Under the pieces are notes generated by a model. It was not told the DNA's origin. It worked only from the letters and a program-made list of their open reading frames with translations, and made no database searches. Positions 1 to 12,153 of a stretch of 12,153 nucleotides of DNA are shown here, piece after piece. Where the stretch lies: positions 1 to 12,153 of the forward strand of contig JAEOSZ010000084.1 in assembly GCA_016840095.1 (NCBI GenBank). Reading direction: 5' to 3'. Position numbers and translations under genes: made by a program. The DNA is from Candidatus Heimdallarchaeota archaeon. GTDB lineage: Archaea > Asgardarchaeota > Heimdallarchaeia > Heimdallarchaeales > Heimdallarchaeaceae. Each line of letters opens with the position of its first letter. The stretch's first letter is position 1.

Positions 1-141
1 ATAAAATGCACCGATAAAGCCTTCATCTTCGATTGTTTGAAGATAACCTTCCTTTTGTAAACCTTCTCGTGCAAAAGCTTCTTTATTCAATGCTTCAAAT
101 TGAATCCAATCTTTTTCATTGAATTTTCTGAACTCAAGCAT
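1..141 (-). CDS. 5' part of a probable GNAT-family N-acetyltransferase (runs off the left edge)
   Basis: My translation from ATG at 141: MLEFRKFNEKDWIQFEALNKEAFAREGLQKEGYLQTIEDEGFIGAFY, open to position 1. The N-terminus (xxFRxxxxxDxxxxxxLxxEAF) is typical of GNAT beta1-alpha1. TATA-like TTTTATTA at 165-172. Acetyl-CoA motif A lies outside the window. Confidence 0.6.
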   Translation of the reverse strand, partial: MLEFRKFNEKDWIQFEALNKEAFAREGLQKEGYLQTIEDEGFIGAFY

Positions 142-190
142 AATAATACTTCAGTATAATTTACTAATAAAATAGTTTTGATGAAAAGGA

Positions 191-526
191 TTAAATTCCT
201 TCTATCTTGAAATCTTCTCCAAATTCCATTTCATCTTCTGTAATTTCAACTACCATTCGTGATAATTGTTTATACATTTCAAAATACTGATATCCTCTAG
301 TTGTGCTCTTATATATTATTGAAGGTCTTTTCTTAGGATTTTCGAATTTTACCATAAGACCTCTTGATAGCATGAATTGAACAATACTTTTTGCCCGATC
401 TATAGGTAAATTTGCTCTTCTAGCAATTTGAGAAATACCAGCTTCCCCATAATATTGTAAAGCGGAAATTATTTCTGCATAGATGTCATATCTAGTTCTG
501 TTGCTTACTGGCATTTCTATCAACAT
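191..526 (-). CDS. Archaeal winged helix-turn-helix transcriptional regulator (HTH_45/ArnR1-like)
   Basis: RTRYDIYAEII...ISQIARRANL...MLSRGL...YKSTTRGYQY fits the archaeal wHTH pattern RxxxxIxxxIL...TxIxxxxNL...LxxxGL...YxxTxKG. Acidic C-terminal tail. An alternative start at 514 is possible. Confidence 0.8.
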   Translation of the reverse strand: MLIEMPVSNRTRYDIYAEIISALQYYGEAGISQIARRANLPIDRAKSIVQFMLSRGLMVKFENPKKRPSIIYKSTTRGYQYFEMYKQLSRMVVEITEDEMEFGEDFKIEGI

Positions 527-549
527 TTAGTAGTTAAGAAATTGGTTTT

Positions 550-578
550 AAAAAGATTGGGCCTCCTATGAAGCCCAA
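550..578 (-). terminator. Hairpin plus U-tract terminator after the bactofilin-like gene
   Basis: Minus-strand RNA UUGGGCUUC-AUAG-GAGGCCCAA (9-bp stem with one G-U) followed by UCUUUUU, 24 nt downstream of the stop codon at 603-605. Confidence 0.6.
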
Positions 579-602
579 GCTTCTCAAATAGGTTTGCTTA
601 AA

Positions 603-1799
603 TTATTTATACTTCGCGGAGGGGTCAGCATCAATGTCTTTTGCTTCAAGTTTCCCAACTTTAGAATCTTCACCAAGTTTGACCTTATTGGCAATAATGT
701 GATCTACGCGTCCACCATCGTCTACAACAACTGTATCAGCTTTCACAATCCCTCTTACTCTGGAATCTTCTCCAACATATACATACTTGGCTGAAGTTTC
801 CTCAGCAATTAAACCGCCTTCAACTTTGATTTCATTTGCTTCAAGCATTATGGCAGTTAATGATCCATTAACCTCTAAATCTCCTTCTAATTTCAAATCT
901 CCATCAGCTTTGGTTGAACCATTAACCTTTAGCTCAGTTCCAAAAGCATTTCCATTAATCTTGAATGCACCATTAACTTCGATTTTGTTGAATTTGAAAT
1001 TATCTCCAACAGTAGTAGCTCCATTTATAGTTAGATTTTGAACTACTGATTCATCTCCAAAACCACATGCACCATTACAACTGACAACTGGTGATACAAC
1101 ACTTCCTGTACATTTAAAGGAACCACTAACATTTAGCACCCTCTCTGCTTTGGAACTTTCCATTCTTGCAGAGCCACTAATTTCTGCAGTTTTTGAGATT
1201 AGTTCATAACATCTCAAGGAACCACTTACATCCACCTCAGGAACTTCTAATATACCTTCAATTTTGGCTGAACCTGATAGTTGAAATTCTTCACTTGCAG
1301 ATACGTTAGCTTGAGCTTTTAAAGATCCATTAACTTCAAGTTCTTCTGTGATTATATCCATACCATGTTTAGCTGAACCGTTTATTTCATATTCATTGAT
1401 CTTTGCTAAACCATGAACAACACAAGAACCATTAATCTCTACATCATCACCTGTAAGATCTTTATCAACTTCTAAAGCTCCATCTATATTAGCTGATTCA
1501 CATTCTAAAGAACCAACAACGATAAGTTTAGAACCATTTCTTGAACCACGACTATCCACTCTCACTTCTTGAGTTTTAACATCACCATCAATTTCAAGAT
1601 AACCATTAGAATGCCTAATTTCTGTAGATTTAACTGAACCATGAATTAGTACATCTCCTCTACTGATCAATTTACCCTTAATTGTTAATTCCTCAACACT
1701 TTTTGGAATATTTATTGTTGCTCCATCTAGTACTTCTAAATCCCCATCAACGTGGGTTAAGTCTATCTCTTCGTCTTCTTTGACTACTGTTTTTCCCAT
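603..1799 (-). CDS. Long bactofilin-like (polymer-forming cytoskeletal family) beta-helix protein
   Basis: The whole 398 aa consists of ~16-18-aa repeats such as VEINGSCVVHGLAKINE, LEVNGSLKAQANVSASEE, VDVSGSLRCYELISKT, IEVNGAFKINGNAFGTE. The C-terminal VYVGEDSRVRG...VKLGEDSKVGK is bactofilin-like. No signal peptide or TM segment. SD GGTGA at 1806-1810. Confidence 0.8.
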   Translation of the reverse strand: MGKTVVKEDEEIDLTHVDGDLEVLDGATINIPKSVEELTIKGKLISRGDVLIHGSVKSTEIRHSNGYLEIDGDVKTQEVRVDSRGSRNGSKLIVVGSLECESANIDGALEVDKDLTGDDVEINGSCVVHGLAKINEYEINGSAKHGMDIITEELEVNGSLKAQANVSASEEFQLSGSAKIEGILEVPEVDVSGSLRCYELISKTAEISGSARMESSKAERVLNVSGSFKCTGSVVSPVVSCNGACGFGDESVVQNLTINGATTVGDNFKFNKIEVNGAFKINGNAFGTELKVNGSTKADGDLKLEGDLEVNGSLTAIMLEANEIKVEGGLIAEETSAKYVYVGEDSRVRGIVKADTVVVDDGGRVDHIIANKVKLGEDSKVGKLEAKDIDADPSAKYK

Positions 1800-1805
1800 T
1801 CATAA

Positions 1806-1852
1806 TCACCTGACTACTTGTTTCTAAAAAATTACTCTCTTCTATATTTAAA
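1806..1852 (-). promoter_or_regulatory. TATA box (TTTAAATA, 1845-1852) and archaeal SD (GGTGA, 1806-1810) of the bactofilin-like gene
   Basis: Minus strand reads ...ctttTTTAAATAtagagag...gtcaGGTGAttatgaATG. Confidence 0.6.
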
Positions 1853-1859
1853 AAGAAAC

Positions 1860-1874
1860 GACACAAGTTGTGAC
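1860..1874. promoter_or_regulatory. Palindromic putative operator GACACAAGTTGTGAC
   Basis: G-n-CACAA-g-TTGTG-n-C inverted repeat 7 nt upstream of the TATA box. Confidence 0.4.
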
Positions 1875-1932
1875 CAAAAAGTGTACCCAAGATATTATCA
1901 AAAGAAGTGAAAAATGCAAAAAAATAGGATTT

Positions 1933-3750
1933 TTAGTCTGTCTGTGAAGCTAGGGAATCAGCTGTAGATTTAACTATCTTCTCTTCCCAGAGCCTTCTCA
2001 TCTCTGCACTAGTTTCTAATAGATCATCTAATTTACCTTGAGAATCTATTTTTCCATCTTTGAGAACAATAACATTATCTGCTCTACGCAGTGCAATTGG
2101 TCTGTGAGAAACGGCCAAACAAGTTGAAACCCCACTTCTTTCAAATACTCTTTTCCATAGTTTCTGTTCAGTTTCAACATCAAGGGCACTTGAAAGATCA
2201 TCAAAGATATAGATTTCTGAATCTCTAGCAAACATTCTAGCAGCTGCCAAACGTTGTCGTTGACCTCCAGATAATTTAACTCCTTTTGGACCAATTACTG
2301 TATCCAATCTATTTTCAAATTCTTCTACTTCTTTTTCGATTACAGCTAGTTTCAAAGCTCCTTCGATATCTACTGATTCCTCAGGTAATCCCATAAGGAT
2401 GTTTTCTTTGACTGTTTCACTAAAAAGTCGTGGAACCTGTGATGTAAACGCTGTTATTGGTGGTACGAAGAAATCATCTGGTTTTTCAACTTCTTTTCCA
2501 TTCCATATTAGTGCGCCTTCATCTTTAGGCAACAACCCAATTAAGGTTCGTAGAAGAGTTGTTTTTCCTGAACCAATTCTTCCTGTGATAACGATGAAAG
2601 ATCCTTTAGCAATTGAAAAATTGATATCTTTAATTCCTTTGTCGGAATCAGGATAAGTATAAGATAAATTCTTCACTTCGAAATTAATTAATTTATTCTC
2701 TTCTTTAATTGACAAGGCTGGAATTTTTGGATAGGATTCTTTGATGTAAATTGGGCCATGTCTTACTAAGTTAAATTCTGTAACATCTGGATCTTCACTC
2801 TTGATTAGTTTAAACATTCTCTCAAGTGAAACCTTAGTACGAATATATCTAGGAACTAAATCTCCCATATTCCAGATGAACTCTCCTAATTCCCCTAGAA
2901 GTCCAATGAAAAATGCTAAATCACCTATAGAGAACATAGCTCCTTGCATGTTTTTTACAACAAGTAAAAGGATTGTTCCTATAGCTAAATAGACAGTAAC
3001 ATAGTAAATAGAGTGAAGTAATCGATGGAAGAATTCATCCTTTACTTCAGCAATTCTCCTCTCTCGGTTAATTTCACCGAAGTATTTTAACACGTTATCT
3101 TCAGCTGTTGCAACCTTAATAGATTGAACTGATCTAAAGATTTCTCCAATTGTACGTGTTACTGCACCTGCTGCTTTTCTACGAGCTTTTCTTAACTTAG
3201 TAAATACTGGCCTTGTAAAGAAGACAAGTATCATCATAAATATGAAGGGGATGCCTACAAATATTGTTACTTTCCAGTTAATGTCTCCCATTAAATAGAA
3301 TGAAATTCCAGTGAATATTCCTAAACTAAAGAAGGAAGTAAGATGATATACAAACCACATAACTTCCTCAATATCTCCTCTGAATCTAGAAACAGCTTCA
3401 CCCGGAGAATCTGGAAGAGCAACTGCTCCAGGCTTTTTGAAGATACCAAGTAGCATGTTTCTTCTTATTAATACCCTACTAGCTAGTACGAAAACCCACA
3501 TCGTGAATATAAAAACGAAATCTCCAACAAGTCTCAAACTAAGAGTCATAGGTAGCACTAAGAGCACTAGAATCCAGATATTCACATCAATATTCCAACC
3601 AGGAATTCCTTCTAGTTTATTGAAAATTTCTCTTATCACTATCGCTGCAGCTAAAGGCTGAATGAAGAACACTATATCTGAGAGAAATCCTGCAAAAACC
3701 AAACCTGGTTTATATTTAATGGCTTTCCAAGCTACTCCAAGTACTCTCAT
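1933..3750 (-). CDS. ABC exporter half-transporter (TMD-NBD), subunit with non-canonical Walker B
   Basis: N-terminal TM domain with [10 protein letters not shown]. Walker [11 protein letters not shown]-loop SQ, signature LSGGQRQR, Walker B IYIFDD, D-loop SALD, switch SHR. ATGA overlap with the upstream gene at 3747-3750. Confidence 0.95.
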
Positions 3751-5564
3751 TTTAACAACTCCTCAATTTCTCCGGTTTGTAGCAAATGATAAAATTTAGA
3801 TTGTGTATTTTTTGCTAAGACCTCTCTTTTTCCATATTCGATAATTTTGCCTTTATCAATGATTAAGATGTCATCAACTTTTTCTAGAGTTGCTAAACGA
3901 TGAGCAATTATTATCCCAGTTCTATTAATGAGTAGTTTCTCAATTGCTTGATCAAGCAGATGTTCTGTAGCAGGATCTAATCTTGATGATGCTTCATCTA
4001 AAACCACCAAATTTGGACTCTTGATAAAAACTCTAGCTAAAGCCAATAATTGTGCTTCTCCAGCTGAAATTCCTTGTTCACTTGAAGATATTATTGTGTC
4101 TAAACCTTCAGGAAGTTTCTCTAACCAATTACCTAATCCTATATCAAGTAATATAGATTCAATTCTAATATCTGGTATTCTATTATCAAATAAAGTCACA
4201 TTTTCTCTTACAGATGCTTGGAACAGCTCTACATTTTGTGTAACATATGAAATTTTATCCCTTAAATCAGGAAGAGAAATATCAGTGATTTTTATATCAT
4301 TTAACCTAATATCTCCTTCAGTGGGTTTAGCATCATATAATCTGAAGATAAGTCGTGATATTGTGGTCTTTCCTGAACCTGTGTGACCAACAATCCCTAG
4401 GGTTTGCCCTGGCTCAAGTTTGAAGGAGATATCATTAAGCACATAATCATCTTCAACATAGGCGAAGCTAAGATCATTGAATTCAATAGCTAAAGGACCT
4501 CCAGAAAGTGTTTGATCTCCTGTATCATGAATTTTGGTTTCCATGTCGAATAGTTTATTGATTCTATCAATTGATGCCCCTGCTCGTTGTAGGTCTTGCA
4601 TCTGTCTTGTTATAACAAATATGGGTCTAAGTAAAATTCCGGCAAATACCTGAATCAAGAATACTGTACCTAGAGATAATACACCTGCTTTAACTAAAGG
4701 GATACTAGGTGCAAAGATTAGAGTGTTGATAAGTGCTATTACTCCCCAGATAGCCATTACAAAAACTTGACCTCTATACAATGCTCTGCGAAAAGCTTTG
4801 AAATCCTTTCTTGAAGCATCATAGAACTTGCGCATAGAGTTTTTTATACCATCATTGGCTCGTATATCTTCTATTGCACTTAGACTTTCTTCAATAGTTC
4901 CATACATATCTGCACTTGTTTGTCTTTGATCTTCCCAAGCCTTGACAGAGAAGTTCCTTAAAACATACATTACAACAATAGCCAATAGAGTGAAAGCTGT
5001 AAAGGATAAACCAATTATCCAATGTTTAGTGAAAAGGACAGCTAAAGATCCAATTATTACCAATAACGAAGTGACCAATTGAACTGCAAATTGTGATAGA
5101 AATGTAGCTAGTGTATTTACGTCACCATCAATTCTTTCAATCATCTCTCCTGGTTTATGCTCGTTATGAAAGGTCATATCTAAACTAACGCAATGGTTAG
5201 TTAGATCAAATCTCAGCATATTGGTTGCTGACCAAGAAAGACTTTGACTTAGGTAAACAGATCCTAAAGTAATAACTTGTTGGATTACCATCAAAATAAT
5301 ATAAGCGATAGCCAAGAGTATGAGAACCCTAGTAACAGTGTTAATACTTACTAAGGGAATTTGCATTCCTTCCCAATAAAAACCAACATCTTGTAAAGGA
5401 ACACCTCTAGTTGCTAAATTGATGAAGCTTTCAATAACTAAAGGGGAGAAGATTAGAAGAGAGGTTCCACTAGCCAATAGAAGGGCTAACAATAGCACTC
5501 TTTTCTTGAAAGGTGCAAGGTACTTTTTCTGTACATCCCAGTATTTTTGTAGTGGAACTTTCAT
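3747..5564 (-). CDS. ABC exporter half-transporter (TMD-NBD), subunit with degenerate signature
   Basis: TM domain with [11 protein letters not shown]. Walker [11 protein letters not shown]-loop TQ, signature ISAGEAQ, Walker B VVLDE, D-loop SRLD, switch AHRL. Confidence 0.95.
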
Positions 5565-5590
5565 GGTCTTGGTTATCCAACTTAAGAGAC

Positions 5591-5598
5591 CTTATAAA
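5591..5598 (-). promoter_or_regulatory. TATA box of the ABC operon (likely leaderless transcript)
   Basis: TTTATAAG 26 nt upstream of ATG 5564, with no SD in between. Confidence 0.6.
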
Positions 5599-5614
5599 TT
5601 TAATCAAAAACGAT

Positions 5615-5643
5615 AAAAAAAAGACTCTTGCATTTGCAAGAGT
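5615..5643 (-). terminator. Hairpin plus U8 terminator immediately after the DUF2834-like gene
   Basis: Minus-strand RNA UAA-ACUCUUGC-AAAU-GCAAGAGU-CUUUUUUUU: perfect 8-bp stem starting right after the stop codon. Confidence 0.7.
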
Positions 5644-6369
5644 TTACTGTTCAGGTAATCGTGGTCTCATACTTAGGTAAAGAAAACTACCAAACAAGGG
5701 TATACAGAATAAAATGAATAGTTTCCAATTGTTCCAATTCCTTCGTTTCATGTCACTCCAAATGACTATTGGAAAGAATAAGGTTAACAATGCAAAGTCT
5801 ATTGTTGATAATTGTATGAGTCTGACATTTAGAAAGCTATCTACAAATACTCCCCATTTCCCATAAATGCTTGCTGCAATTATTCCGTACATAACTATTG
5901 CTCTACCTAATTCTGATAAAATGATACCTAAGATACGTGAATCAATTATTTTGATAAATAGTGATTTCTTAGTTTTGAGTTTCTTTTTTCTTACTCCTCT
6001 TACTGCAAAGTATGGCATCATTAAATACATGCCTAATCCAAACGAACCTAATACAAAAGGCCATGATGGAATGAATCTTTCTCTATTTTCCACTAAAAGA
6101 ATTACTGCATAAAGTAACGCCCAAACTCCTACCATCATGAAGATACTCCATTCTATTGGATTAGATTTTCCATATGCTATGGTGAAATCACCAAATCCCG
6201 GATCTCCAGGTTGTTTCGAAGGAGCCCATATAAACATGTAAAGTAGAACTCCAATCCAAACTACTAAAAACAATAAGTTTGGAGTTAGAAAATCTTTCCA
6301 AGGAACTTTGAAATCTTTGAGTAGGTTTCTTTGTTTTTGTTCAGTTATTTCTGGTTCTGAATTTTCCAT
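5644..6369 (-). CDS. Multi-pass membrane protein, DUF2834-like family
   Basis: About 6-7 hydrophobic segments. Motifs YxFIWAP, NPxxWxIFxxVGVW, IPSWPFxLGSFxLGxYxxMPYFAVR, DSR, DFxLL, DMKRR and IPLFGxxLYLxxRP match my recollection of this family. SD GGAG at 6378-6381. Confidence 0.65.
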   Translation of the reverse strand: MENSEPEITEQKQRNLLKDFKVPWKDFLTPNLLFLVVWIGVLLYMFIWAPSKQPGDPGFGDFTIAYGKSNPIEWSIFMMVGVWALLYAVILLVENRERFIPSWPFVLGSFGLGMYLMMPYFAVRGVRKKKLKTKKSLFIKIIDSRILGIILSELGRAIVMYGIIAASIYGKWGVFVDSFLNVRLIQLSTIDFALLTLFFPIVIWSDMKRRNWNNWKLFILFCIPLFGSFLYLSMRPRLPEQ

Positions 6370-6397
6370 TTTTAATTCTCCGTATGAGATTTAATTG

Positions 6398-7036
6398 TCA
6401 TGTGTTGAATGCTCTGTCTCCTGCATCTCCTAAGCCTGGAACAATGTAGCCCTTATCATTCAGTTTATTGTCGACTGCTCCAGTTACGATAATCGACTCA
6501 GGAAATTCTTCATGAATTCTATCGATTCCGTATTGTGATGCAATTGCGCATAAGATGATAATTTTGAGAGGTTCTTTGTTTTTAATTTCTCTAAGCGTAA
6601 ATAATAGGGTAGAACCGCTAGCAATCATCGGATCAATTACTATGGCAATTTTATCATCAAGATGAGGGATATTACCATATAAAGAATGAATTTGAAACTC
6701 TTTTCCATCCTTTTGTAGTTGTTTTCCTCTTGATGCGGAAATTATTCCTACTTGGGCTCTGTCAAATACCTCTAACACTCCCTCAGACATAGGTACTGCA
6801 GCTCTCAAAATAGTAATAATCACAATGTTATCCTTGATTCTCTTAAAATCAGCTGTTCCTAAAGGAGTTTCAATTGAGACTTCTTCAGTATCTAGGAATC
6901 TTGAAGCTTCATACGCTAGATATTTGCCAATTTGCTGAAGATTTCTTCTAAAATCTGCAGGTATTGTCTCTTTATTTCTTATTTTTCCTAGGATTTCAGA
7001 AATAAGGACATTCCTCTCACTACCATTAATTAGCAT
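6398..7036 (-). CDS. upp: Uracil phosphoribosyltransferase
   Basis: IRNKET...FRR...LAYE, ETPL, ILRAA, PRPP-binding IDPMIASGST, and uracil-binding C-terminus YIVPGLGDAGDR. Confidence 0.95.
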   Translation of the reverse strand: MLINGSERNVLISEILGKIRNKETIPADFRRNLQQIGKYLAYEASRFLDTEEVSIETPLGTADFKRIKDNIVIITILRAAVPMSEGVLEVFDRAQVGIISASRGKQLQKDGKEFQIHSLYGNIPHLDDKIAIVIDPMIASGSTLLFTLREIKNKEPLKIIILCAIASQYGIDRIHEEFPESIIVTGAVDNKLNDKGYIVPGLGDAGDRAFNT

Positions 7037-7117
7037 CCAAAACTACTATTTGCTGGCTAGAATAAATATCTTGTTCAAAAACAAGCATTTTGCTTATCTT
7101 TAATCTTCAATGATTTC

Positions 7118-7711
7118 TTATTTTTTCCTAATTTTTGGGAATAAAGTTCCTGTAGTTTTTTGATATTCCCTATATGAATCTCCAAATCTTCTGATTAGAT
7201 CTTTTTCCTCAAAGTATATCATTATTGGTGTATAAATAACAATGAAAACAGTTAGTAAAATAACAAGGAACCAAGAGTTTAGAGCCAAACCAAGAGCTGG
7301 GAACATAGGTAACTCACCAGCAGTTTGAGGGTGTCTAATATGATTGTAAATCCCCCCATACATCTCAGTTTCTTTGGAAGGAGATAGAGTTTCTTTTCCT
7401 GCATCTTTTACACCTATATAAATTAAAACTCCTCCTGGTATGAATATTGCTAAACTTAATACTAAACCTAACCACCATAGATTGAAGATTCTCCAATCAA
7501 GAGCGGGAATCGGGAACCATATCCAGAGAATAGGAGTTACGACTGCTATCAGTTCAAAGAAAGAAGCGACTAACCTTAGATTCTTACAAAAAATCCATGC
7601 CTTATCTCCCATTTTTTCACTCAGTTTAGCTGGTCTGAGACTAAAAAAATATATCACTGAAAAGAGGAAGAGAGACGAAACAAACAATGCTAGGTTTATC
7701 CACTCATACAT
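7118..7711 (-). CDS. Isoprenylcysteine carboxyl methyltransferase / phospholipid methyltransferase (ICMT/PEMT) family membrane protein
   Basis: GIYNHIRHPQ (GxYxxxRHPxY-like, Y replaced by T) and EEKDLIRRFGDSYREYQKTT...FP, with several TM segments. Starts 2 nt after the upstream stop. Confidence 0.85.
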   Translation of the reverse strand: MYEWINLALFVSSLFLFSVIYFFSLRPAKLSEKMGDKAWIFCKNLRLVASFFELIAVVTPILWIWFPIPALDWRIFNLWWLGLVLSLAIFIPGGVLIYIGVKDAGKETLSPSKETEMYGGIYNHIRHPQTAGELPMFPALGLALNSWFLVILLTVFIVIYTPIMIYFEEKDLIRRFGDSYREYQKTTGTLFPKIRKK

Positions 7712-7713
7712 AT

Positions 7714-8715
7714 TTATCCCCTGAACTTTACTTTACCAAACTTTGAAACCCAATCATTTTCATCAAACATCTCTAGAATAAAGATATTTTCTAGATTATC
7801 TCTGAGGAAGTAAACTTCTTTTCCAAGTTCCTCAGCAAACTTAACCTCTATGTATACTCCTCTCCCAACAAAATATCCTCCTTCATGTTCCACTGCGGAA
7901 AATACAATTATGTCACATCTACTTAGGAGATCAAGACATTTTTTCATTATCTCTTTGCCAGAATCTTTTTTCCATTTCTTCTCATATTTTGCAGGATTTA
8001 TTATGTCTGCTTTTGGAAAAACGTTCTTTATCAGTTTAAGTTCCTGTTTCTCTTGCTTCTTTCCATAGATGTTCATCGAATGCGCATAGTATATCTGTGG
8101 AATAACTCTGTATTGTTTCCTTTTGTAGAGTTCGAGTAGAATACAAGCAGAATAGAATGCATCATAACTTGCTCTATGTGCCTCCAACTCACTGATTTTT
8201 TCTTCAAGTTCTTTGTTAATAATAATGCTCTCTGAAGTACTATCAAGAAGTTTCTTCTTTGAATAAGCTAAATTATAAATTCTATTTCGATTTTTCTTTC
8301 CAGATGGTCTAATATATTCTGAAGCTGTGAGCATTATGCAGGGAGTTACTTTTGTTTTGGTGTTTTTTTCGTTAATATTCCAAGGATCTTGTTTCAGAAA
8401 CTTATCAAGATCAAATGAATTATTGTAAGCAGCAACAAATTTACCAGATAGAATTTGCCGTACTTCCTCAATTACAGTGGGCAAATCTTTCTTAGCATTC
8501 TGAATTTCTTCAACTGATAGTACTCCTTTAGTGAATATCCATGAATTTCGAAGATTATCATCCCAGGATTCAGTATCGTAATGAATTAATGATTGGTAAA
8601 CTTGAGTAATCTTTTGTTTCAAAACATTGGCTCGCATAATTGATATTTCCACTACAAGATCTTTAGGTGATCCATCAAGACCAGTTGTTTCAATATCCAA
8701 AACATAGATATCCAT
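7714..8715 (-). CDS. DEDDh 3'-5' exonuclease fused to a C-terminal nucleoside 2-deoxyribosyltransferase/DUF4406-like domain
   Basis: ExoI LDIETTGL (D7, E9), ExoII AYNNSFD (D102), ExoIII HRASYDA (H180, D185). Residues ~207-304: IYYAHSM...IINP...MKKCLDLLSRCDIIVF...GRGVYIEVKFAEELGKEVY. Confidence 0.8.
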   Translation of the reverse strand: MDIYVLDIETTGLDGSPKDLVVEISIMRANVLKQKITQVYQSLIHYDTESWDDNLRNSWIFTKGVLSVEEIQNAKKDLPTVIEEVRQILSGKFVAAYNNSFDLDKFLKQDPWNINEKNTKTKVTPCIMLTASEYIRPSGKKNRNRIYNLAYSKKKLLDSTSESIIINKELEEKISELEAHRASYDAFYSACILLELYKRKQYRVIPQIYYAHSMNIYGKKQEKQELKLIKNVFPKADIINPAKYEKKWKKDSGKEIMKKCLDLLSRCDIIVFSAVEHEGGYFVGRGVYIEVKFAEELGKEVYFLRDNLENIFILEMFDENDWVSKFGKVKFRG

Positions 8716-8786
8716 TAGGATACAAAATCAGCTAATCCTTTAAGTTTTTACCCCTCCCTAAAGAAAGTGATGAAAATAAGAAGAAT

Positions 8787-9332
8787 TTAGTGTGATCCTC
8801 TATAATCAGGGTAAATTTTCATCCCAGCTCGAATAGGTATCTTGAGGATATTCTCATCTGGAGTAAGAGAGCAGTTCCAATTATCATTGTAAGCACACAA
8901 AGGATTGTAGGCAGTATTAAAATCAATTACCCATTCTTCTTTTGAGATCTTCTCTATTTCTACATACCTTCCTATCTTGTAGGATTCTTCTCCTGTTGTT
9001 GTGTCTTTGAAAGGCACGAATAGGTAATCTCCATCAAGTGGTTTGAAAACAGTGAGTTGGTTGGTTTGTCCTTCCAATTCAAATTCGATATACCCATAGC
9101 GACTATATCTCCTGTTATCATATCTTGTAGTGGAAATAGTTATTTCACTATGCTCATCAAACTTCTTCATTTTGAAAACAATTTCATATTTTTTATCTAT
9201 TGGAAAATATGGTATTTCCTTGAAATCTTGTTTTTGTTCCTCAGTTAATGGAGAATGTGGAGATTTTTTGAAAAGAATATTATTTCTCTCTCTGACTCTT
9301 TCAATTTTTTCTCTATGAGTCTTTTGTGGCAT
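8787..9332 (-). CDS. DUF1684 family protein
   Basis: SPL, YFP, LFVPFKDxTxGxESYxxGRY, DFNxAYNPxCAYNxxxxC, ENxLxIPIRAG. Confidence 0.9.
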   Translation of the reverse strand: MPQKTHREKIERVRERNNILFKKSPHSPLTEEQKQDFKEIPYFPIDKKYEIVFKMKKFDEHSEITISTTRYDNRRYSRYGYIEFELEGQTNQLTVFKPLDGDYLFVPFKDTTTGEESYKIGRYVEIEKISKEEWVIDFNTAYNPLCAYNDNWNCSLTPDENILKIPIRAGMKIYPDYRGSH

Positions 9333-9377
9333 AGGATAAAGGGTTAATTATGCTTTTTTAAAACTATGTTTGAACAA

Positions 9378-9671
9378 TTATTCAGGTGGATATTTTCTAT
9401 TAACTATTTCAAAAATTTCATTGGCTATTTCTTGAGAACCACCTGAGTCATCCCAGACGCTAGTTGGGGCAAAGATATACCAAAGCTTAGAAATTTCTCC
9501 AAATTCTCCATTCCTTATTTTCTGAATAATGTTTTGAATATAGATGCCTACATCTTCACAAGTATCAAAGTAAGAAAATGTTGTTTGATTTCCATAAGAT
9601 ATCATTTCTTTTGCAGCTTTATCTAGCAGAAGAAGAAGTTCATGTATTTCTTTGTCCTTTGTTTCTTCCAT
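9378..9671 (-). CDS. Small acidic helical hypothetical protein (LWxIFAPTxxWDD motif)
   Basis: 97-aa ORF filling the gap between neighbours, with TATA-like CTTATAAG 24 nt upstream (9696-9703). Confidence 0.7.
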   Translation of the reverse strand: MEETKDKEIHELLLLLDKAAKEMISYGNQTTFSYFDTCEDVGIYIQNIIQKIRNGEFGEISKLWYIFAPTSVWDDSGGSQEIANEIFEIVNRKYPPE

Positions 9672-9705
9672 AGTTTAGGACGTTTGTTTTCTTCACTTAT
9701 AAGGG

Positions 9706-9726
9706 TGATTAGATGATTAGATGATT
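9706..9726. repeat. 8-bp tandem repeat (TGATTAGA) x2.6 between divergent promoters
   Basis: tgattaga tgattaga tgatt read directly from the sequence. Confidence 0.75.
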
Positions 9727-9773
9727 CAATTAGCTTTAAATACCGCTTTTGACAAATACTTGACTTGATTGAC

Positions 9774-10676
9774 ATGAGTGGAGGATTGCGATCCGTTTTT
9801 TGGGGAATGTCACTAGTTTTGTTTTTAGCTTGTTCTAGTGGTATTCAAACTCAAGCAGTTACTTGGACTAATTACGGTTCAATGTATGAATATTCAGAGG
9901 AAAGCACTCGTATTATCTATCAAGATGGAAAGAAATACGATGAGGGAATTTTCACAGATTCATTAATGGTATGGAATGTGACTACTGTAGGTGATAAAGT
10001 ATATTTTCAGACTAATTTTACTCCTTATTTTATGGGATTAATGCATTTTGAAACACAACAAGAATATGATGAATATTTGGAAAAACATTATTGGTGTGAT
10101 AGTAATGAAGGTAATATGACTATTGCATATTCAGTTGTAGATACAGATTTTTGCTTTGTAGACATGCTGGATTACACTATAGCTTATAATGCTACTATTA
10201 CTGATTTTGATATTAGATTTATCTATCAGAAAATGTATGGTTTGTTCCTTCCGGTTAACCATTCTTTATTCAATTTTAAAACAGAATATACAACTCTACT
10301 TCATACTGAAGGGGTAATTCATGATGTTGTCTTTGAAGAAGAAGATTCTTTTGTATTGGATAAAATGAAGTATGATGGGTATTATCTGTCCTTAGAGTAT
10401 GTATACTATTATCACAGTGTTGGTATTAATGTACGAAGTGAGCGTACAATAGTAGTAATGTATTCCTTGAAGGGAGAGCTATACTACTATGGATTCAGTG
10501 AATTTATACGTAATGATGATAATAACGATAGGATTCAATATTATGAAGCATCATTCACATTAGATGCACCATACAGAGAAAATGGTGTACGTCGAATTAG
10601 TTTTGCTAGTCCAATAATTGTCATAGGGTCAATAGTTATTGCAACTTACATCTTGACTAAATGGAGAAAAAAATAA
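9774..10676 (+). CDS. Secreted, C-terminally membrane-anchored surface (glyco)protein of unknown function
   Basis: Signal-peptide-like MSGGLRSVFWGMSLVLFLACSSGIQTQA. Tyr/Phe/Asp/Glu-rich body, five N-x-S/T sequons, C-terminal TM helix plus KWRKK. ATG 9774 is preferred over TTG 9765. TATA TTTAAATA at 9735-9742. Confidence 0.75.
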   Translation: MSGGLRSVFWGMSLVLFLACSSGIQTQAVTWTNYGSMYEYSEESTRIIYQDGKKYDEGIFTDSLMVWNVTTVGDKVYFQTNFTPYFMGLMHFETQQEYDEYLEKHYWCDSNEGNMTIAYSVVDTDFCFVDMLDYTIAYNATITDFDIRFIYQKMYGLFLPVNHSLFNFKTEYTTLLHTEGVIHDVVFEEEDSFVLDKMKYDGYYLSLEYVYYYHSVGINVRSERTIVVMYSLKGELYYYGFSEFIRNDDNNDRIQYYEASFTLDAPYRENGVRRISFASPIIVIGSIVIATYILTKWRKK

Positions 10677-10682
10677 TACCAT

Positions 10683-10702
10683 TCTCTTTTTTTCTTGATT
10701 TT
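10683..10702 (+). terminator. Oligo-T terminator of the surface protein gene
   Basis: tctctttttttcttgatttt just after the stop codon. Confidence 0.45.
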
Positions 10703-10716
10703 ATACTAAACATTGT

Positions 10717-10766
10717 CTTTGCTGCAAGGTTACCTTTTCGTAAGGGCATCCTTCTTGGAAGGGAAT
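10717..10766. repeat. Three tandem 16-17-bp units, each an inverted repeat C(C/T)TT-N5-AAGG
   Basis: CTTT-gctgc-AAGG-tta / CCTT-ttcgt-AAGG-gcat / CCTT-cttgg-AAGG-gaat. Units 2 and 3 are 13/17 identical. Confidence 0.55.
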
Positions 10767-10903
10767 TAAATTAACGATTTTTGATATGAGAGAAAACTGC
10801 TTTAAAATTTTGCATCTGAATGGTCAATCATCAATTCTTTGTCATCCCAGAAATTTAACTGGTAAATCAGAAATATAATAAGTGTAAATTCTGAAGGATA
10901 TAC

Positions 10904-11359
10904 ATGTCACAAAAAAATGTTAGAACTGGTTGGTTTTTCAGAGATTCAGCACCTCCTAACGACAATGCTCATTTTGAAAACATGGCTAGGTGTGTTTTCC
11001 AGGCAGGGCTAAGCTGGCAGCTTATAGCAGATAGGTGGTCCAATTTTAAGAAAGCATTCAAAGATTTTGATATAGAAACAGTAAGTAAATTTGATGAAGA
11101 TGATATTGAATGTTTGCTTCAAGATTCAGGAATAATAAGAAACAGAGCAAAAATTGAAGCGGTAATAATTAATGCAATAGTCTTTTCTGAAATTAAGGAA
11201 GAGTATGGATCATTCAGAGATTTTGTGGATAATCTTGATACATCTGAAAACTATAAACATGTTAAGAAGGAGTTATCCAAACGTTTTGAGCGAATGGGTC
11301 CGAAAACATCCATGGTATTCTTGTATAGTATAGGAGAAAATATTAAACATGAGGATTAG
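10904..11359 (+). CDS. Short DNA-3-methyladenine glycosylase I (Tag)-like HhH protein
   Basis: FE...FQAGLSW...FKKAFKDFDIETVSKF...LLQDSGIIRNRAKIEAVIINA...GSF...LSKRFERMGP..FLYSIG. Lacks the YHDxEWG segment, so the symbol tag is withheld. Confidence 0.85.
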   Translation: MSQKNVRTGWFFRDSAPPNDNAHFENMARCVFQAGLSWQLIADRWSNFKKAFKDFDIETVSKFDEDDIECLLQDSGIIRNRAKIEAVIINAIVFSEIKEEYGSFRDFVDNLDTSENYKHVKKELSKRFERMGPKTSMVFLYSIGENIKHED

Positions 11360-11368
11360 TGGAGGTAT

Positions 11369-11740
11369 TCAGAATACTAACACTATGAAATCAACTATTG
11401 CTAGAGTTATTGTTATTAGCGCAGAAGTAACCAATACAGCTAGTAGCACTTTGTATTCTTTCTTTCCGTAAATACCTATTGCATTTACAATGGCGTAGAG
11501 TATTAGCCCTAGTGCAAATAAGAAAACATACAATCCCCAAGTTAACTCTAGTATTAATGCTATTCCCCCAACAATTGCTAGAGTCGACATTATAAACTCA
11601 GCTGTGATATGAAATAATCTTTCAAAGGGATGTTCAATAAACAAGTTACCTTTCTTTTTTAGAAGCACTGTTATCCAGAGTAAAGCAGTGATAGTACCTG
11701 CACTAATTGAAAAGACTCCTGATATTATTTCTAGAATCAT
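11369..11740 (-). CDS. Four-TM hypothetical membrane protein (FHxxAE motif)
   Basis: Four hydrophobic helices, with FHITAEF and LGLILYAIVNAIGIY. TATA-like element at 11764-11771. Convergent with the Tag-like gene, 9-nt gap. Confidence 0.75.
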   Translation of the reverse strand: MILEIISGVFSISAGTITALLWITVLLKKKGNLFIEHPFERLFHITAEFIMSTLAIVGGIALILELTWGLYVFLFALGLILYAIVNAIGIYGKKEYKVLLAVLVTSALITITLAIVDFIVLVF

Positions 11741-11824
11741 GTTTTCTTGTATAACCTACTTTGTTATATTATTTTCTCAAAATGTGTAAACTTTGAAAAT
11801 CTTCTTTCATTATCATTTGAAGTT

Positions 11825-11853
11825 AAATAAAGAAAAAGAGGAAAAAGAAAAAT
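11825..11853 (-). terminator. Oligo-T terminator after the NuoN-like gene
   Basis: Minus strand atttttctttttcctctttttctttattt directly after the stop. Confidence 0.55.
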
Positions 11854-11856
11854 AGA

Positions 11857-12153
11857 TTATACTATAAGTGCTATTTTGCTCACAATTAGATCTGGCCATA
11901 AACCAAGAACTATTAGAACAACTACAATTATAGCTAAAGCTATTTTTTGGAATATTGGTATTTTTATCTTGCCTGTATCTTCACCATCTGGTTCATCAAA
12001 GAGCATTTTCTTTAGAATATACATATATCCTCCTAAAGCTAGCAAGGAGTTAATGATAGCCATAATTACTAACAGAATACTGTTGATAAACATTAAAGGA
12101 TTAACAGCGTTAGCTCCACCATTGAAGGTTGCAAGAATTACCATTAGTTTTGA
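11857..12153 (-). CDS. C-terminal part of a NuoN/MrpD-like proton-conducting membrane subunit (starts beyond the right edge)
   Basis: The frame is open to the edge: SKLMVI... (end of the PPxxGFxSK motif), then AIINSLLALGGYMYILKKMLF and terminal LGLWPDLI, as in NuoN-type C-termini. The parent complex (Nuo/Fpo, Mrp, Mbh) cannot be determined here. Confidence 0.75.
   Translation of the reverse strand, partial: SKLMVILATFNGGANAVNPLMFINSILLVIMAIINSLLALGGYMYILKKMLFDEPDGEDTGKIKIPIFQKIALAIIVVVLIVLGLWPDLIVSKIALIV

Follow-up and report, generated by a model that had tools for sequence, protein, structure and literature searches.

A DEDDh exonuclease fused to a divergent domain of the nucleoside 2-deoxyribosyltransferase/DNPH1 fold in Heimdallarchaeaceae

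Introduction

DEDDh exonucleases release deoxynucleoside 5'-monophosphates (5'-dNMPs), the substrates of DNPH1-type enzymes. Human DNPH1 belongs to the same superfamily as the nucleoside 2-deoxyribosyltransferases (NDTs) and the hydrolase MilB. Enzymes of this superfamily are obligate homodimers in which the second subunit completes the active site, and the DNPH1/Rcl subfamily binds phosphate through a G-S-x-R-G-G loop after strand 1 and a Ser of the partner subunit. Catalysis by DNPH1 relies on the conserved residues Tyr24, Asp80, and Glu104; for Asp80, the proposed roles are protonation of the leaving group and activation of the water molecule that hydrolyzes the covalent intermediate, and the 5'-phosphate is bound by the backbone NH of Gly100, which precedes the Glu by four residues (PMC10483697). 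Fusions of phage SLOG domains to nucleases and helicases have been read as sensors coupled to effectors, a computational proposal by the Aravind laboratory (PMC9503650). Here we analyze a gene in a 12,153-nucleotide stretch of DNA from a Candidatus Heimdallarchaeota archaeon (contig JAEOSZ010000084.1, positions 1 to 12,153; hereafter the window) that encodes, in a single chain, a DEDDh exonuclease and a C-terminal domain (C-domain) predicted to have the NDT/DNPH1 fold. An earlier inspection of this DNA from its letters alone (the sequence-only reading) had proposed this architecture as one not known to have been characterized; our literature searches likewise found no description of a DEDDh-NDT-like fusion protein.

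The fusion is genuine and lineage specific

The gene runs on the minus strand from an ATG at position 8715 to a TAA at positions 7714-7716 and encodes 333 amino acids (aa), with neither a stop codon nor a frameshift at the domain junction (Table 1); the G+C content of the window is ~33%. When 5.8 billion proteins were searched, ~60 clusters (330-340 residues each) matched over the whole length at 45-84% identity; their source names, where given, are Heimdallarchaeota, Heimdallarchaeaceae, or "Asgard group." We also surveyed the phylum in a sample of 201 genomes. The full-length fusion is encoded in 10 of the 16 genomes of the window's genus and in both genomes of a second genus, without internal stops in any of the 12, and nowhere else in the sample. 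In a third genus, two closed genomes gave no match to the fusion, and the sister family has the stand-alone exonuclease only, at ~36% identity.

Because the fusion recurs in ~60 independent clusters from many assemblies and in 12 intact genomes of two genera, an assembly error or chimera is ruled out. The close homologs are fused and uninterrupted rather than encoded as unlinked genes, and within Heimdallarchaeaceae the fusion gene has been inherited vertically as a lineage-specific trait.

The exonuclease domain carries a complete set of catalytic residues

The residues of the Exo I (D-x-E), Exo II (D), and Exo III (H-x4-D) motifs are all present in the fusion protein. D7, E9, D102, H180, and D185 make up a complete DEDDh set, as had been read from the sequence, and each of them is invariant in the 41 full-length homologs that we aligned. 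The Pfam model RNase_T (PF00929) matches residues 5-190 (E 6.4e-6; 27.2 bits versus a cut-off of 24), and the N-terminal half is also matched by the generic DEDDh model of PADLOC (E 6e-12) and by the phage PHROG family "DNA polymerase exonuclease subunit." Structural matches of this domain found with Foldseek include DnaQ domains, 3'hExo, the DinG exonuclease, Orn, RNase T, and ExoX. In NCBIfam every match falls far below its cut-off, and no specific exonuclease subfamily is assignable.

The C-terminal domain ranks with NDT and DNPH1 enzymes

The C-domain contains the pattern IYYAH...NP...M..CL...D..VF...G.GV..E...A, from which membership in the NDT/Rcl-DNPH1/MilB superfamily had been proposed; the nucleotide range given for it, ~7804-8097, correctly corresponds to residues 207-304. 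When modeled alone by AlphaFold with a family alignment, the C-domain reached a predicted local distance difference test score (pLDDT) of 91.9. A Foldseek search of this model against the PDB produced significant matches exclusively to DNPH1, NDTs, and MilB (E 3.6e-5). After re-alignment, Z was 10.2 for 7m5h (an NDT-like protein from E. faecalis), 9.8 for the NDTs of both Desulfotalea psychrophila and Chroococcidiopsis thermalis, 9.0 for human DNPH1, and 8.4 for MilB. Comparison of the model with 48,161 representative chains by a Foldseek-independent route yielded eight chains with Z of at least 8, and all eight belong to the NDT superfamily; the folds that ranked lower were TIR (at most 7.8), DprA/SLOG (6.8), LOG-like (6.1-6.4), and YpsA (5.9). 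In the model, the C-domain has a flavodoxin-like three-layer alpha/beta fold of the NDT/DNPH1 type, in agreement with the sequence-only reading.

At the sequence level the relationship is more distant. PF05014, the Pfam family of NDTs, matches residues 237-310 of the full-length protein with a sub-threshold score (21.8 bits versus a gathering cut-off of 28.8); with the C-domain alone the score is 24.3 bits (E 3.5e-5) against the same cut-off, and 34 of the 41 homologs are matched. Using hhalign, we compared the profile of the C-domain clade with that of 28 bona fide members of PF05014 taken from Asgard genomes; the comparison aligned 94 columns with a probability of 95.9% (E 5e-9). The sub-threshold Pfam score bears on sequence-family membership only, and this profile comparison supports likeness at the superfamily level. 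The C-terminal half is also matched by the phage PHROG family "nucleoside 2-deoxyribosyltransferase" (E 1e-6). Sequence searches of the PDB with family profiles gave marginal matches only (7m5h, E 0.18), which were used for residue pairing and not as a measure of significance. As for SLOG, single members of the clade match SLOG cluster models, weakly, and a weak hidden Markov model (HMM) match of the C-domain to a LOG-like chain lies over the G-x-G-x-x-E motif. By the structural ranking, which places it with DrHyd/NDT rather than with SLOG, the C-domain is best described, on the model, as a divergent member of the NDT/DNPH1 (DrHyd) superfamily.

The clade to which the C-domain belongs has neither a Pfam nor an NCBIfam model. 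The window's genome (G000) has a separate 186-aa protein that passes the PF05014 threshold (contig 28, 19852-20133, plus strand; L017, 1396-1956), and therefore the C-domain represents a distinct, paralogous clade. That separate protein has a GVGMEI motif and a zinc-ribbon-like CxxC...CxxC tail at its C terminus.

The active site is conserved in part

Equivalences between residues of the C-domain and those of NDT and DNPH1 rest on profile alignments. In the hhalign comparison with the 28 archaeal proteins, Y209 and E290 pair with the catalytic Tyr and the nucleophile Glu, and the HMM alignment to 7m5h gives the same pairing; C260 falls on the position of the general acid/base Asp. Both the nucleophile position of E290 and the acid/base position of C260 had been assigned by the sequence-only reading, and hhalign reproduces them. 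Judging from its spacing, G286, which stands four residues before E290, would be the equivalent of Gly100 of DNPH1.

Conservation of the C-terminal half is strong. Y209, Y210, H212, E222, P241, W248, C260, F272, G284, G286, E290, and A294 are invariant in the alignment of 41 homologs, in which the linker between the two domains is likewise conserved. In the wider clade, at 32-65% identity, Y209 is retained in 47/47 sequences, H212 in 46/47, Y217 in 46/49, E222 and G286 in 49/49 each, and E290, the conservation of which had been a point to check, in 48/49. Position 260 is occupied by Cys in 43 of 49 sequences, by Phe in three, and by Tyr in three.

The C-domain belongs to a wider clade with varied architectures

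Exhaustive searching of 1.84 billion representatives with HMMER yielded 613 matches, and domain architectures were counted among the best 150 of them, 58 of which have the C-domain. The majority of these 58 clusters (39) are stand-alone proteins of ~120-170 aa, and the fusion family of the window is one cluster. Two clusters, P0066 and P0139, have the reverse order, with the NDT-like domain followed by the exonuclease, and in three (P0120, P0135, and P0178) the NDT-like domain stands between an N-terminal region and a DEAD_2 helicase-like region. P0066 resembles the window's protein in both halves (52% identity in the NDT-like half and 36% in the exonuclease half, each with E ~1e-40), and therefore the exonuclease and NDT-like families were joined at least twice, in different orders. 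P0139 adjoins an MmeI-type restriction-modification gene.

The two domains also occur side by side as separate genes. In a distant Asgard genome (G171, locus L013), a DEDDh exonuclease gene (5605-6177, plus strand) and a gene for an NDT-like protein (6597-6983, minus strand) are adjacent and convergent, and the pair adjoins a HEPN RiboL-PSP-like gene and an nSTAND3 NTPase gene; it is possibly a defense-island version of the combination. In another Asgard genome (L014, 4356-5342, plus strand), the NDT-like domain is fused to a DUF2270 integral-membrane domain in a 328-aa protein flanked by Schlafen AlbA_2 and Abi_C-like genes, which looks like an arrangement of a sensor and a membrane effector. 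Stand-alone members in Kariarchaeaceae lie in a series of small genes that share one orientation, a DNA methyltransferase gene among them, and those in Hodarchaeales lie near ribosomal genes. The clade has also been found on phage DNA, in one metagenomic contig family, where, in a replication module, its member lies downstream of DnaB and ParB, with RusA on one side and further early genes on the other. A tblastn search of 50,697 phage records with the C-domain, together with a scan of viral contigs, gave no matches.

Proteins that combine the NDT-like domain with DEAD_2 (P0120, P0135, P0178, and P0117, one of them from Hodarchaeales) show no obvious Walker A motif when their sequences are read, and their helicase part may be degenerate.

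Gene neighborhood in the window and in related genomes

The gene for a PEMT/isoprenylcysteine-methyltransferase (ICMT)-like membrane protein (7118-7711, minus strand) begins past the stop codon of the fusion gene and is probably co-transcribed with it, because only 2 nucleotides separate the two. Farther downstream are upp, an uncharacterized gene of 241 aa, and two ABC exporter genes. On the 5' side, the nearest neighbors are a DUF1684 gene and then a 97-aa gene with no family match. A Tag-like 3-methyladenine DNA glycosylase I of 151 aa (10904-11359, plus strand; PF03352, E 2e-28) is encoded 2.2 kb upstream. This gene order is kept in other members of the genus, with insertions and deletions. 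Around the orthologs of the second genus (48-49% identity), none of the window's neighbor genes is present; the neighbors there encode a Na+/H+ exchanger, a major facilitator superfamily (MFS) transporter, a methyltransferase, and a histidine kinase. The neighborhood is consequently uninformative about function. A functional link to upp, Tag, or DUF1684 was considered and set aside: their association is synteny at the level of the genus, and all three are absent around the second-genus ortholog.

A role as a defense-island gene is unsupported for the window's genome, where, as in the second genus, the neighbors are ordinary genes. PADLOC detected nothing for the C-domain or the neighbors, and matched the exonuclease half with generic DEDDh and PDC-S48 models only. 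In Heimdallarchaeaceae the fusion gene is not located in a defense island.

Several further features of these loci were recorded. The PEMT/ICMT-like gene occupies the same spot in L008, L011, L012, and L056, and a divergent acetyltransferase gene is found there instead in L001 and L002. The Tag-like gene is duplicated in tandem in the related genome L001, and its linkage to the fusion gene is limited to the genus. The 97-aa protein (9378-9671, minus strand) is acidic; DUF1684 lies between its gene and the exonuclease gene in the window as well as in L001, L010, L011, L012, and L056, and the 97-aa gene is directly upstream in L002 and missing in L008. A divergent gene of 303 aa (9765-10676, plus strand) encodes a protein of no known family with a signal peptide and a C-terminal membrane anchor. 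Elsewhere in the window, a 398-aa protein (603-1799, minus strand) has three repeats of bactofilin (PF04519), a polymer-forming cytoskeletal domain, here in an Asgard archaeon, and is 44% identical to its counterpart in L056. In the sister family (L016), the orthologous stand-alone exonuclease gene (5522-6157, minus strand) overlaps the end of a 485-aa gene (6114-7571, minus strand) that encodes HhH and RNase_H_2 (PF13482) domains; this overlap may represent a two-nuclease operon.

Table 1. Coordinates of the fusion gene and its features in the window
Feature	Coordinates	Strand	Basis
Whole gene, DEDDh exonuclease/NDT-like fusion protein (P0001)	7714..8715	-	~60 full-length homologous clusters, 330-340 aa
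Exonuclease domain, residues 1-198	8122..8715	-	Pfam RNase_T, PADLOC DEDDh, invariant residues, structural matches
Exonuclease catalytic codons	D7 8695-8697; E9 8689-8691; D102 8410-8412; H180 8176-8178; D185 8161-8163	-	Each codon checked individually
Predicted NDT/DNPH1-fold (DrHyd-class) domain, residues 200-333	7717..8118	-	AlphaFold model, structure searches, hhalign, clade conservation
C-domain key codons, first part	Y209 8089-8091; H212 8080-8082; E222 8050-8052; C260 7936-7938	-	
C-domain key codons, second part	G286 7858-7860; E290 7846-7848; D321-W322 7750-7755	-	
71-bp intergenic spacer 5' of the start codon, likely site of the gene's own promoter	8716..8786	-	Position

Possible functions of the fusion protein

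We tentatively favor, with a probability of roughly 40%, a bifunctional enzyme in which excision of nucleotides is coupled to removal of their bases. The sequence-only reading had likewise suggested a two-step enzyme, with modified nucleotides or modified viral DNA as putative targets. The DEDDh domain would trim nucleotides from 3' ends as 5'-monophosphates; the C-domain would then bind the mononucleotide, and Glu290, held by Tyr209, would break the N-glycosidic bond to give a free base and (deoxy)ribose 5-phosphate. The physiological role of such an enzyme might be to destroy or salvage nucleotides excised from the ends of DNA or RNA, similar to the pool sanitation performed by DNPH1. We favor this reading because the C-domain is structurally closer to enzymes than to sensors, because the Tyr-Glu catalytic pair is near-invariant, because the products of the exonuclease chemically fit the substrates of DNPH1-type enzymes, and because the two domains are repeatedly fused or adjacent. 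The abundance of stand-alone forms (39/58 among the best 150 of 613 representatives) suggests, in addition, that the C-domain has an activity of its own. The ordinary chromosomal setting of the fusion gene in Heimdallarchaeaceae also counts for this reading.

Several observations weigh against such coupling, and the missing Asp is the main difficulty. The acid/base residue (Asp80 of DNPH1, Asp62/72 of NDTs) is absent, with C260 in its place, and since 6 of 49 clade members have Phe or Tyr there, position 260 is not catalytic across the clade. Because these residues are tolerated, the acid/base role must lie elsewhere, with His212 and Glu222 as candidates by position, or the substrate must be one that is cleaved independently of an acid. 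In the coupled enzyme, either of these two clade-specific residues might take over the role of the Asp, or the substrate might have a good leaving group, for example an alkylated or otherwise modified base. The phosphate loop GSIRGG, which follows strand 1 in DNPH1 and is present in a bona fide DNPH1-like archaeal sequence (L040), is replaced by AHSMxIY (A211-H212-S213-M214-N215-I216-Y217 in the window's protein). The active site has thus kept the Tyr-Glu pair and the Gly, lost the Asp and GSIRGG, and gained an invariant His212 and Glu222. Beyond the active site, the C-domain does not reach the gathering score of PF05014, and no conserved neighbor indicates nucleotide salvage, the linkage to upp and Tag being lost in the second genus. 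Finally, published work on the TIR-DrHyd-SLOG class indicates that a conserved Glu in folds of this class also serves ligand binding in non-catalytic sensors (PMC9503650).

The chief alternative, which we consider less likely than the coupled enzyme, is a regulatory one: the NDT-like domain might be a non-catalytic or slow nucleotide binder, comparable to SLOG in ThsA, that switches the fused exonuclease on or off in response to an NAD+/ADP-ribose derivative, a signaling nucleotide, or a pool metabolite. On the one hand, the clade is fused to varied output-like modules (the exonuclease, the DEAD_2 helicase-like regions, and DUF2270), some of its members lie beside genes of the defense type (HEPN/nSTAND3 in L013, AlbA_2/Abi_C in L014, and the MmeI-type gene next to P0139), the lost catalytic Asp is compatible with a binding-only role, and fusions of phage SLOG domains to 3'-5' exonucleases and helicases have been interpreted as sensor-effector pairs (PMC9503650). 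On the other hand, most clade members in the sample counted above are small, stand-alone proteins without an output domain; Tyr209 and Glu290, the catalytic pair of NDT and DNPH1, are almost invariant over a deep clade; the structure is nearer to the enzymes NDT, DNPH1, and MilB (Z 8-10) than to SLOG/TIR sensors (Z 6-8); and the Heimdallarchaeaceae gene sits in stable, non-defense chromosomal surroundings.

It is unlikely that the substrate of the NDT-like domain is the polynucleotide itself, or NAD+, and not a released mononucleotide, although the fusion partners fit such a role in that they handle nucleic acids (DinG/XPD-like helicase regions and, in either order, the DEDDh exonuclease), a stand-alone member is encoded between RusA and other phage replication genes, and the NDT-like effector of retron Ec86 binds multicopy single-stranded DNA (msDNA) directly (bioRxiv 10.1101/2023.08.16.553469). 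An enzyme directed at nucleic acids, to which we give a slim chance, would be an N-glycosidase or transglycosylase; its substrate would be a 3'-terminal or single-stranded nucleotide supplied by its exonuclease or helicase partner, and it would remove or exchange the base. In the NAD+ variant, the domain would be an NADase or an ADP-ribosyl-type enzyme, like other DrHyd/TIR members. A cationic leaving group, such as nicotinamide or an N-alkylated base, needs no acid catalyst, which would explain the replacement of Asp by Cys, Phe, or Tyr. The known pockets of NDT and DNPH1, however, are closed mononucleotide sites at a dimer interface (PMC10483697), neither a DNA-binding surface nor an additional DNA-binding domain was identified in the fusion protein, and no data point specifically to NAD+. 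It is very improbable that the C-domain is a catalytically dead structural or oligomerization module of an ordinary DnaQ-like exonuclease: the loss of the acid/base Asp, the below-threshold Pfam match, and the nature of NDT-family domains as dimerization units would agree with this, but strict conservation of the polar residues Y209, H212, E222, and E290 down to ~32% identity, stand-alone proteins included, would be unexpected if the role were purely structural.

If nucleotide excision and base removal are indeed coupled, the fusion protein would be the first enzyme to combine, in a single chain, the excision of nucleotides from the ends of nucleic acids with their destruction. The protein would also be a prokaryotic counterpart of the eukaryotic DNPH1 pool-sanitizing step, tied to the nuclease that produces the substrate, in Asgard archaea, the archaeal lineage usually placed closest to eukaryotes. 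Were the domain directed at nucleic acids instead, it would found a new class of DNA or RNA base-excision or base-exchange enzymes on the deoxyribosyltransferase fold, with a Tyr-Glu-His/Glu active site that dispenses with the classical Asp. Under any reading, the C-domain defines an unnamed NDT/DrHyd clade in Asgard archaea and at least one phage, whose candidate activities (enzyme, sensor, or sponge) are easily tested. The practical stakes are moderate, as the fusion is confined to two genera and its function is inferred.

Comparison with known systems

With the DnaQ-like DEDDh exonucleases (Pol III epsilon, ExoX, Cas2-DEDDh, the N-terminal exonuclease of DinG, and 3'hExo), the window's protein shares the full motif set and the fold; unlike them, it bears an NDT-like domain, and no subfamily fits it. 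With DNPH1/Rcl and the cytidine monophosphate (CMP) hydrolases MilB/BcmB, the C-domain shares the flavodoxin-like NDT fold (Z 8.4-9.0) and, by profile alignment, the Tyr after strand 1 and the Glu of G-x-x-x-E at the start of a helix, and the substrate class of these enzymes, (deoxy)nucleoside 5'-monophosphates, is what the fused exonuclease would produce. It differs from them in having Cys260 in place of Asp80, AHSMxIY with the invariant His212 in place of GSIRGG, an extra invariant Glu222, a C-terminal beta extension with a conserved D-W, and the exonuclease fusion itself; sequence identity is 13-17%. The NDTs of PF05014 (from L. leichmannii, C. thermalis, and E. faecalis, 7m5h) are the best structural matches to the C-domain (Z 9.2-10.2), and theirs is the sole Pfam family matched recurrently, with the hhalign probability given above; unlike these proteins, the C-domain scores below the gathering threshold and has no catalytic Asp.

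The closest precedent for the architecture is provided by the phage SLOG fusions, which link a Rossmannoid domain of the TIR-DrHyd-SLOG class to a 3'-5' exonuclease, a helicase, or HNH and also have stand-alone counterparts in phages (PMC9503650); the C-domain clade, too, has a stand-alone phage version. In contrast to them, the C-domain ranks with DrHyd/NDT (10.2) over DprA (6.8) and YpsA (5.9), and the fusion is an Asgard chromosomal gene. The idea of a TIR-DrHyd-SLOG-class domain linked to a 3'-5' exonuclease is already known, computationally, for phage SLOG domains (PMC9503650). What appears to be new, judging from our literature searches, is an NDT/DrHyd clade with an altered active site and its lineage-specific fusion to an exonuclease in Heimdallarchaeaceae.

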